The notes below the pieces were generated by a model. The model worked only from the letters and a program-made list of their open reading frames with translations, did not search any database and was not told where the DNA came from. Below, one piece after another: positions 12,128 to 13,030 of a stretch of 64,000 bases of DNA. The translations under genes were made by a program, and so were the position numbers. Source of the DNA: Candidatus Sungiibacteriota bacterium (lineage in GTDB: Bacteria > Patescibacteriota > Minisyncoccia > Sungbacterales > HO2-52-23); contig JACPBG010000003.1 of the NCBI GenBank assembly GCA_016180435.1, positions 77,791 through 141,790 of the forward strand. The letters are read 5' to 3'. The first letter of the stretch is position 1, and each line of letters starts with the position of its first letter.

Positions 12128-13030
12128 GTGGATTCGGGTACGAATAGAATTATGGAAAAGGCGATACGCAACAGTAAAACCGTATTATCATTCATTCTTG
12201 TAGTGATAACCATCATTATTTGGTACGTAGTATTTTATTTTGAATCCCGACAAAATTTGTTGGTCACATTTTTTGATGTAGGACAGGGCGACTCAATATT
12301 TATAGAAGTTCCGGGCGGCAACCAGATTTTGATAGACGGCGGGCCGGATGATTCGGTTTTGGCAAAACTGGGGAAGCGTATGCCTTTTTGGGATCGCTCG
12401 CTTGATCTTGTTATTTTAACCCATCCGGAAAAAGACCATGTTTCAGGACTTCTTGAAGTTTTGCGTCGCTATGACGTTGATAAAATTTTATGGACAGGAG
12501 TCGAGCACTCCATAGCGGAATTTGAAGAATGGAAAAAATTGCTTGAAAAAGAGGATGCTGAAATTTTTTACGCGCAAAGGGGAGGCGTGATTAATTTTGG
12601 CAAAGGTGCAGAGATGGTGATTTTGTGGCCGGATGAAGATTTTCGCGGGAAAACCGTGTCGGAACTTAATGAAACCGGTGTCGTGGCTAAGCTTGAATAC
12701 GGCCAGAATTCTTTTCTTTTCACCGGTGATATCGGTCGTTCCACCGAATATCGTTTATTATCAGAATCTCTAAGTTCTAAGTTCTTCGTTCTAAGTTCTG
12801 ACGTGCTAAAGGTTGGCCATCACGGCTCAAAATATTCATCCTCGGATGCATTTTTACGCGCCGTTTTACCGGAAATAAACGTAATTCAATCCGGACGCAA
12901 AAATCGCTATGGCCATCCGGCGTCAGAAACTCTAGATCGGTTGGCGGCCGCGGGCGCTGCAATTTTGCGAAATGATACGGATGGGGATATTGTGATTGAA
13001 TCAAACGGCTGGATTTTTTGGAGAAAATAA
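12128..13030 (+). CDS. ComEC C-terminal-type metallo-beta-lactamase domain protein (separate gene)
   Basis: N-terminal TM helix; MBL motifs HPEKDHVSGL and GHHGSKYSS. A family F repeat lies in-frame at 12769-12801. Confidence 0.75.
   Translation: MDSGTNRIMEKAIRNSKTVLSFILVVITIIIWYVVFYFESRQNLLVTFFDVGQGDSIFIEVPGGNQILIDGGPDDSVLAKLGKRMPFWDRSLDLVILTHPEKDHVSGLLEVLRRYDVDKILWTGVEHSIAEFEEWKKLLEKEDAEIFYAQRGGVINFGKGAEMVILWPDEDFRGKTVSELNETGVVAKLEYGQNSFLFTGDIGRSTEYRLLSESLSSKFFVLSSDVLKVGHHGSKYSSSDAFLRAVLPEINVIQSGRKNRYGHPASETLDRLAAAGAAILRNDTDGDIVIESNGWIFWRK
12769..12801. repeat. Family F ('cttagaa' heptad) half-element, in-frame in coding sequence, reverse orientation
   Basis: tctaagttctaagttcttcgttctaagttctga encodes SLSSKFFVLSS. 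Confidence 0.65.

Follow-up and report, generated by a model that had tools for sequence, protein, structure and literature searches.

A 64,000-nucleotide stretch of the genome of a Candidatus Sungiibacteriota bacterium, a tiny organism of groundwater (contig JACPBG010000003.1, positions 77,791 to 141,790; this whole stretch is called the window hereafter, and its positions are numbered from its first letter) encodes a ComEC-type metallo-β-lactamase (MBL)-fold protein whose reading frame contains a tandem array of a 7-nucleotide (nt) unit. The open reading frame (ORF) matched Pfam Lactamase_B (E 7e-14, 52.7 bits; cut-off 22.7) and is identical (100%) to an NCBI MBL fold metallo-hydrolase of Candidatus Sungbacteria; database names of its homologues are ComEC or MBL fold hydrolase. 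The gene has the arrangement of a ComEC/Rec2 C-terminal MBL domain beside a Competence membrane domain, with the caveat that it reads H-P-E-K-D-H in place of HxHxDH. The array has the sequence tctaagttctaagttcttcgttctaagttctga and lies in frame, encoding S-L-S-S-K-F-F-V-L-S-S, with V-G-H-H-G-S beginning five codons downstream. The preliminary description of this DNA had reported a reverse-oriented, translated word of a repeat family (family F) in the MBL-domain gene of ComEC, just upstream of GHHGS, and sequence, reading frame and Tandem Repeats Finder (TRF) all agree with it. The features analysed are collected in the table.

Positions, strands and defining properties of the features analysed in the window
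Feature	Positions	Strand	Details
ComEC membrane part, DUF4131 and Competence domains	10220..11770	+	Pfam; upstream of the MBL ORF
ComEC-type C-terminal MBL-fold protein, encoded apart from the membrane part	12128..13030	+	Pfam Lactamase_B; start at 12152 (292 aa) in the public annotation
Single-arm heptamer array, TCTAAGT x4.4, antisense arm of family F, predicted to be translated	12769..12801	+	within the MBL-fold ORF
Stop repair, in-frame TAA to TTC (Phe)	12786..12787	+	the sole two bases off a perfect MBL array
Sense arm AGAACTT x4.6 in the EF-G G-domain loop, predicted to be translated	27172..27203	+	only departure: in-frame TAG to GAG at 27185
Two-armed hairpin, L22-S3 spacer, perfect left arm x4.6	38644..38711	+	RNA fold -32.9 kcal/mol, z = -7.9
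Arrays and hairpin, S3 C-terminus and S3-L16 spacer	39393..39480	+	fold z = -6.4
Hairpin, L6-L18 spacer	43750..43853	+	fold z = -4.0
Sense arm AGAACTT x4.6 in the MetAP loop, predicted to be translated (QELRTKNLELRN)	48374..48405	+	only departure: in-frame TAG to AAG at 48387
Bacterial class A RNase P RNA gene	56572-57090	-	Rfam RF00010, 131 bits
Two-armed hairpin in the RNase P RNA gene	56937..57006	.	fold -52.2 kcal/mol, z = -11.4
Hairpin, spacer upstream of the ATP synthase alpha/beta-type gene (61124..62602)	61022..61109	+	fold z = -6.2

TRF run on the window returned period 7 with 4.4 copies at 12769-12799, where 29 of the 31 bases match a perfect (TCTAAGT)n. Identity of the segment with itself at a lag of 7 nt was 0.76, against a window-wide mean of 0.264 (sd 0.091); only 0.07% of the 36-nt windows in the 64 kb score 0.76 or more. 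The MBL reading frame runs unbroken through the array and retains HHGS. The copy is one 33-nt arm with a local RNA fold z of +0.99. Neither the family word matches in the window nor the local RNA fold revealed a complementary arm nearby, and no target-site duplication was evident in the window sequence at its borders.

The unit of family F is AGAACTT, or AAGTTCT on the opposite strand. A perfect array contains stop codons in both directions (TAG on the AGAACTT strand, TAA on the other) and, because a period of 7 is coprime with 3, shows a stop in every frame within 21 nt. Its translation has a 7-residue period, E-L-R-T-stop-N-L for the sense arm and S-K-F-stop-V-L-S for the antisense arm. EF-G and MetAP carry the sense arm, of which the MBL array is the reverse complement, as the preliminary description had said. 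In each of the three genes the copy departs from a perfect array at the in-frame stop alone, which argues that it is read by the ribosome; judged from this stop-repair pattern in the DNA, the MBL, EF-G and MetAP arrays are translated. Orthologues have other sense codons at the MBL repair site: TTA in loci L002 and L210, TTG in L208, ATA in L209, ATG in L001 and TTT in L003. The only unit of the L001 array with GGA in place of TGA is the in-frame one. Arrays whose units contain no sense-strand stop, and which therefore needed no repair, have stayed perfect or nearly so, as with (ACAACCA)x4.3 in the EF-G gene of L085 (CP066690; perfect) and (AGCTACC)x4.6 in the window's L3 gene (88%).

The preliminary description had further placed the MBL copy in a different frame from the EF-G and MetAP copies. 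This distinction has no meaning, as a 7-nt unit covers all three phases within 21 nt; since each orientation yields a single 7-residue period, frame is not a real variable. Its wider claim, that at least two combinations of frame and orientation are tolerated, holds for orientation and fails for frame, where the register of the stop alone differs. In L086 the EF-G loop also has a family F array, whose unit runs the other way from that in the window's EF-G copy; from the opposite orientations seen with the L086 EF-G copy and the MBL copy, the family is therefore tolerated both ways round.

The MBL domain was compared across 120 homologues (51-100% identity) over the stretch between the TGD and DVLKVGHHGS motifs. 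Its length is bimodal, with 21-22 aa in 75 proteins and 26 aa in 27; when longer variants are counted, 33 long forms stand against 79 short forms. With minor departures the long forms fit S-x-x-S-x-F-[YLFIMH]-x-L-x-S, which is the translation of (TCTAART)n, and the segment is present at the same borders in the window's own clade (P0001-P0004) and in many distant lineages. Lag-7 identity was 0.55-0.76 in the sampled long forms (six orthologues and the window) and at background, about 0.27-0.34, in short forms and 80 outgroup loci, a panel with at most 52% identity among the matches listed in the contig scan for the MBL alignment, the nearest genomes lying outside it. TRF found period-7 arrays at the MBL site in L001, L002, L209 and L210. 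An orthologue alignment had been put forward as the place to look for relatives that already hold this segment in non-repeat codons; relatives do hold it, yet in repeat codons. Judged by the orthologues, the MBL segment is not a recent insertion, and the picture of a repeat landing in a conserved domain, implicit in the preliminary description, appears too simple.

A neighbour-joining tree of the 290-aa protein, computed after masking of the segment, interleaves the two forms: of the 33 long ones, 18 have their nearest neighbour among the short ones, with identities of up to 83-85%. The short forms have a motif of their own, E-x-P-x-x-L-[DK]-[SA], which is common to remote outgroups, and are therefore taken to be ancestral. 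That short forms are deletion products of long ones was considered and rejected, given the occurrence of their motif in these outgroups. The long form would accordingly have been either gained repeatedly or passed between lineages.

Aligned in unit register, the MBL arrays read TCTAAGT TCTAAGT TCTTCGT TCTAAGT in the window, GTTAAGT TCTAAGT TCTTGGT GCTAAGT in L208, CCTTAAT TCTAAAT TCATAAT TCTTGAT in L209 and TTTTGAT TCCGGAT TCATGAT TCTTGAT in L001. Position 6 of the unit is G throughout (window, L208) or A throughout (L001, L003, L209, L210), and in the four units this position falls at codon positions 2, 3, 1 and 2. A corresponding change was found in MetAP. The L212 array, in a protein of 68% identity, equals the window's including its borders and the TAG to AAG repair, and differs by C to T in all four units; one of the four changes is synonymous, and four substitutions placed at random would coincide in unit position with a probability of about 6e-4. 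Identity of the array is likewise out of step with identity of the gene. Between the window and L208 the gene is 59% identical (third positions 40%), the array 88% and the flanks 59% and 65%; between L209 and L210 the values are 63% (third positions 36%), 94% (third positions 91%), and 67% and 73%. For the window and its closest relative, L001, the gene is 75% and both flanks 80% identical, with the array at 48%. In each comparison the change in identity is sharp at the array borders. As read from these alignments, unit variants change in all units together and the identity of the array is decoupled from that of its gene. Transfer of the segment between lineages on a larger recombination patch was rejected, as the raised identity ends at the array borders.

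In an AlphaFold2 model of the MBL protein (predicted local distance difference test score, pLDDT, 88.6), array residues 214-224 lie where helix 204-216 ends and in the coil that follows it (217-225), ahead of strand 226-228, which leads to HHGS. This block has the lowest pLDDT (81) of the protein's C-terminal half. The model suggests that the site is a permissive helix-to-strand connector, and the encoded peptide is most likely a tolerated linker and not a functional module. Elsewhere in the same protein, the HxHxDH motif (12421-12441) reads T-H-P-E-K-D-H in the window's clade, where the second histidine is replaced by Glu or Asp; most relatives have H-P-H-A-D-H. The altered motif may indicate changed metal binding or activity. 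A gap of about 380 nt (11770-12152) separates the ComEC membrane ORF from the MBL ORF, and the two genes overlap in L001, L002, L209 and L210. The gap contains a 69-aa ORF without a Pfam match, and no arrays were found in it.

Family F is dispersed in the window. With up to one mismatch, TTCTAAGTTCT has 44 matches, where 0.98 are expected and none of 100 shuffles gave more than 5; for the exact heptamer the count is 31 (7.1 expected). About nine clusters are spread over the 64 kb in both orientations. Five are two-armed, consisting of (AGAACTT)n, an A-rich loop and (AAGTTCT)n, with RNA fold z from -4 to -11; four of these occupy spacers (L22-S3, S3-L16, L6-L18 and upstream of the ATP synthase gene) and one lies in the gene for RNase P RNA. 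Three are single arms in genes (EF-G, MetAP and the MBL ORF), with no local partner and fold z from -1.5 to +1.0. The S3-L16 and L6-L18 copies have a near-identical core of about 60 nt in common, and three copies end in TCTTTTGCGAAGCAAAC, followed by the start codon of the next gene. The hairpin of the RNase P RNA gene sits in a 119-nt insertion between Rfam model positions ~79 and ~99. An Rfam search matched no known RNA family to the family F hairpins themselves.

Some further observations concern these clusters. The S3 ORF (38726..39463) runs through the left arm of its hairpin (39393-39463) and ends at a TAA in the loop, which gives it the C-terminal tail KNLDLRTKNLDKHLELRTKNLEN; in L087 this place is taken by a perfect (AGAAAGT)x4.3. 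The RNase P RNA is 519 nt long for a 367-position model, with further insertions of about 25 and 49 nt elsewhere, and an ORF at 56506..56931 probably overlaps its gene spuriously. Downstream of three hairpins (38706-38728, 39497-39518 and 61105-61126), a conserved tail TCTTTTGCG(A/G)AGCAA(A/G)C immediately precedes the start codon. A small stem of 4-5 bp with a GAA/GGA loop can form in this tail, which may serve as a signal for translation initiation or for processing. Further short tandem arrays belong to other families and are often arranged as inverted pairs in spacers; they were found at 194-277, 2936-2983, 6539-6666, 21857-21890, 35258-35368, 37533-37648, 42456-42493, 51645-51679 and 63570-63612, and also at 36015, 40586, 41124, 42149 and 59520. 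Their units include the 8-mer AATTCGTA, the 9-mers AATTATTCT/ATTAGAATA and the 10-mer ATCTGTGA, and a 22-nt repeat, ATGCCAATCC..GCGAATTTA, occurs five times.

Loops of other proteins gave a similar picture. The EF-G loop ranges from 22 to 53 aa among homologues of 78-93% identity and the MetAP loop from 9 to 46 aa among close homologues, and both hold many different 7-aa-periodic inserts. At EF-G the window's nearest relatives have a different insert from the window's; at MetAP its three nearest relatives each have a different one. L085 carries (ACAACCA)n at EF-G. In L087, a Sungbacterium from Hainich groundwater, the EF-G loop (10229-10259 of that locus) holds both arms, (CTAGTAA)2(CCAGTTA)2, translated LVTSNQLPVT; such a two-armed insert may be an intermediate able to yield single arms of either orientation. 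Ribosomal protein L3 (34628..35251) contains a separate heptamer family, (AGCTACC)x4.6 at 34872-34903, translated LPATSYQLPA. The same L3 loop has (GCTCCAA)n in L086 and no array in L085 and L087, and peptides of the ATSYQLPAT type also occur in the MetAP loops of other genomes (P0258, P0283). As far as these alignments go, the EF-G, MetAP and L3 loops behave like the MBL site.

All Sungbacteria contigs examined are full of paired short intergenic arrays, mostly of period 7 and with diverse units. Family F itself was found at three sites only in 1.4 Mb of related loci, all of them coding, so that its non-coding bloom looks specific to the window's lineage. When the coding unit was sought elsewhere on each relative's contig, no matching non-coding arrays were found within 10-20 kb. 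A scan of metagenome contigs for AGAACTTAGAACTTAGA yielded at least 120 stretches, 80 of which were taken as loci (L088-L167; GC 0.21-0.69). By blastx none of the 80 is orthologous to the window's genes, and only two lie in long open frames, both on high-GC contigs and probably spurious. The (AGAACTT)n arrays of the metagenomes include some on high-GC soil contigs; they often lie next to variant units and are accompanied by an inverted partner (e.g. L093, L089, L120). Tandem-heptamer hairpins appear to be widespread well beyond bacteria of the Candidate Phyla Radiation (CPR), and mostly non-coding.

Family membership, translation, stop repair, patchiness, unit-wide change and decoupling would be connected by a mechanism in which a repeat born by slippage in a permissive loop is homogenised by concerted evolution and filtered by selection, and this is held to be the probable explanation, with appreciable room for error. 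Short arrays, mostly heptamers, would arise and turn over in DNA by polymerase slippage or template switching. They would persist as two-armed hairpins in spacers and at the tips of RNA helices, and within genes would survive only in a few tolerant loops (the MBL connector, the EF-G G-domain loop, the MetAP loop, the L3 loop and the S3 tail), where survival would require a length that keeps the frame and a mutated in-frame stop. A resident array would then be homogenised by transient out-of-register copying between its units, leaving its length unchanged. Because each position of the unit serves codon positions 1, 2 and 3, a unit-wide change would alter several residues at once; for the same reason such changes would be rare and synonymous sites would stay frozen for long, with occasional jumps between discrete array types. 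Bacteria have an excess of heptameric simple sequence repeats (SSRs), for which slippage has been suggested as an explanation (PMC4692102).

Several points weigh against this explanation. Some nine loci of one genome carry one unit, which points to recent dispersal or exchange between loci, and independent homogenisation does not explain a unit common to them all. Strong conservation of the array at the DNA level between distant lineages would also be expected under a DNA or RNA constraint. Long and short MBL forms differ in length by 12-15 nt, which is no multiple of 7 or 21, so that simple gain or loss of units fails to explain how the long form originated. The patchy distribution, too, could reflect recombination between lineages instead of repeated gain.

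A rival account is maintenance by exchange between loci. The coding copy would be repeatedly overwritten by gene conversion from the genome's other family F copies, the hairpin arms of spacers and of RNase P RNA, while selection restored or preserved the stop repair, which is considered unlikely; that the MBL array tracks the dominant repeat family of its genome, with local homogenisation playing a minor part, is doubtful to the same degree. The presence of one unit in both orientations at about nine loci in 64 kb speaks for such exchange, as do the near-identical core of the hairpins at 39.4 kb and 43.8 kb, which indicates recent copying within the family, the closer approach of the window's MBL array to perfection (2 mismatches, with 4-6 in L002 and L208), and the switch of array type between the window and L001 while the flanks are still 80% identical. 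On the other hand, with its three coding sites in 1.4 Mb of related loci, family F offers no non-coding donor in view (10-20 kb per relative), and comparable genomes use different units at different sites: contig JACPMG010000023 has an A-class MBL array, the MetAP insert GKWQKADGKW and an EF-G gene without an F array. The stop-repair codon is also kept across array types, and would be lost if a perfect donor converted the array over its full length. That a mobile palindromic element, similar to a Rickettsia palindromic element (RPE) or a transposable element of the miniature inverted-repeat type (MITE), was recently inserted into the MBL gene of this lineage is very improbable. Related two-armed elements of about 100 nt are indeed dispersed and recently copied, and the EF-G loop of L087 holds both arms, the loss of one of which could leave a single arm in either orientation; yet the MBL copy is a single 33-nt arm without a partner, no duplicated target site is evident, and the segment has the same borders throughout the window's clade and in many distant lineages. 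The orthologue DNA already largely refutes such an insertion.

Selection on the array in its own right can be envisaged at two levels. At the level of nucleic acid, arrays would be recognition sites, acting through antisense pairing of complementary arms or through a repeat-binding factor, a proposal with little likelihood. If pairing were involved, which is equally doubtful, (AGAACUU)n of hairpin RNAs would meet (UCUAAGU)n of the MBL mRNA, and (AAGUUCU)n would meet (AGAACUU)n of the EF-G and MetAP mRNAs. It is no more probable that coding copies are kept at the DNA level because they link their genes post-transcriptionally, in one network, to ribosomal operons and RNase P, or that the spacer hairpins, the RNase P RNA and the EF-G, MetAP, L3, S3 and MBL mRNAs form a sequence-addressed network in trans by pairing or by binding a factor, for which the chances are also small. 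Such a network, if true, would explain both the conserved synonymous sites in otherwise saturated genes and the switches of whole units between types. Third-position identity of 73-91% in arrays against 36-40% in their genes would fit it, as would the complementary partners made available by both orientations in one genome, the clustering of copies in genes of the translation apparatus, and the hairpins directly upstream of start codons with their conserved tail. Clustering in translation genes is, however, expected in a window that is mostly ribosomal operon, and the coupling of codon positions under concerted evolution accounts for the conserved synonymous sites without any function. Relatives have quite different units at the same sites, units differ within one genome, and many relatives are without the segment altogether. 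At the protein level, S-L-x-S-K-F-x-[VI]-L-x-S might be selected for a structural role, with the DNA periodicity as a relic or by-product, which is hardly credible. The S, F and L positions are conserved across the 27 long forms and the model is fairly confident at the segment (pLDDT 81-93), but a protein module cannot account for a 29/31 match to an exact heptamer abundant elsewhere in the genome, for a synonymous position that co-varies with non-synonymous ones, or for the absence of the segment from 75 of the 120 close homologues, interleaved with carriers.

The MBL array is one instance of a wider phenomenon with a clear evolutionary signature. A unit length that is no multiple of three does not keep simple repeats of non-coding type from becoming protein, and this extends to essential, highly conserved enzymes of the very small genomes of CPR bacteria; for a heptamer the price is a single stop-repair mutation. 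The period of the DNA is linked to that of the protein, a 7-nt unit giving a 7-residue peptide period, and the arrays offer a clean natural case of concerted evolution within coding sequence. They also have practical consequences: they inflate apparent protein divergence, make hypervariable loops in EF-G, L3, S3 and MetAP, markers of CPR phylogeny, and can mislead gene callers and alignment trimming. Should arrays prove to be recognition sites, they would add a regulatory layer in an uncultivated phylum.

Among known systems, phase-variable contingency loci resemble the arrays in having a unit that is not a multiple of three within an ORF, where a change of one unit would shift the frame. They differ in that the hosts here (EF-G, MetAP, L3) are essential, the tracts short (about four units) and the stop removed by substitution; no on/off variants were seen among the homologues. 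Repetitive extragenic palindromic (REP) sequences and bacterial interspersed mosaic elements (BIMEs), REPINs and MITEs share with family F the form of short, dispersed intergenic hairpin repeats in high copy with recent copying (PMC3333891, PMC3116915, PMC3184786). The hairpin copies of family F have inverted arms. These arms are themselves 7-nt tandem arrays, and in coding sequence only single arms occur. The 64-kb window, in which no systematic transposase search was made, showed no associated transposase. The tandem repeats of Borgs are likewise fast-evolving, occur between genes and in ORFs, where they add low-complexity or disordered segments, and are gained at similar places by homologous proteins, with slippage suggested as their origin (PMC9879509). 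Genic Borg units are perfect, all divisible by three, and create amino-acid repeats (PMC9879509); the MBL unit of 7 nt is not so divisible, three units make one 7-residue period, and the stop must go.

A closer likeness in coding sequence is found in the RPEs. These are palindromic units of 100-150 nt with a fixed sequence and one reading frame, present in protein-coding and RNA genes. They have been discussed in PMC1779305 and PMC10969869. As with family F, repeated DNA of non-coding type is translated in conserved proteins at fold-compatible sites without destroying them, occurs in RNA genes too, and is patchy among orthologues. The MBL copy is in frame in an intact ORF and patchily distributed, but is not a complete palindrome. 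Coding copies of family F are single arms of about 32 nt of a 7-nt array that is read in all three phases, they require stop repair, and the sequence of their unit evolves in concert.

The nearest relatives in kind are the heptameric SSRs of bacteria and the STRR (short tandemly repeated repetitive) sequences of cyanobacteria. Judging by its title, a paper by Vioque from 1997 (reference B108 of PMC2858038) reportedly places STRR repeats inside the RNase P RNA gene of heterocystous cyanobacteria, where family F also has a copy. Published heptamer units include GGGAATC of Xanthomonas and GGGGAYT of Nostoc (PMC4692102). Heptameric SSRs are built of 7-nt units in tandem, with about four copies favoured (PMC4692102), close to the 4.4 of the MBL array. 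Further points in common are the many dispersed copies, mostly between co-oriented genes and near stop or start codons, the inverted pairs able to form stem-loops in some cases, the minority of copies overlapping ORFs, and the large variation in sequence and length between close relatives at conserved positions. In the papers on heptamer repeats that were consulted, intragenic copies were only counted; no description was found there of arrays translated in frame within conserved housekeeping proteins, of the repair of stops, of arrays recurring in the same loops or of concerted change across units. Nor, within an incomplete coverage of the literature, was one found of translated, stop-repaired heptamer arrays in CPR bacteria. 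The MBL array has 4.4 head-to-tail copies of a 7-nt unit, where about 3 or more define such repeats, and family F has many dispersed copies with some inverted pairs, and an occurrence in RNase P RNA. It has neither the unit nor the taxon of the Calothrix/Nostoc STRR or of the Xanthomonas GGGAATC repeat: its host belongs to the CPR/Patescibacteria, and its unit is not G-rich and has no G-quadruplex potential. With the unit AGAACTT in Candidatus Sungbacteria, it is therefore a new family of the same kind, outside the named STRR and GGGAATC families.

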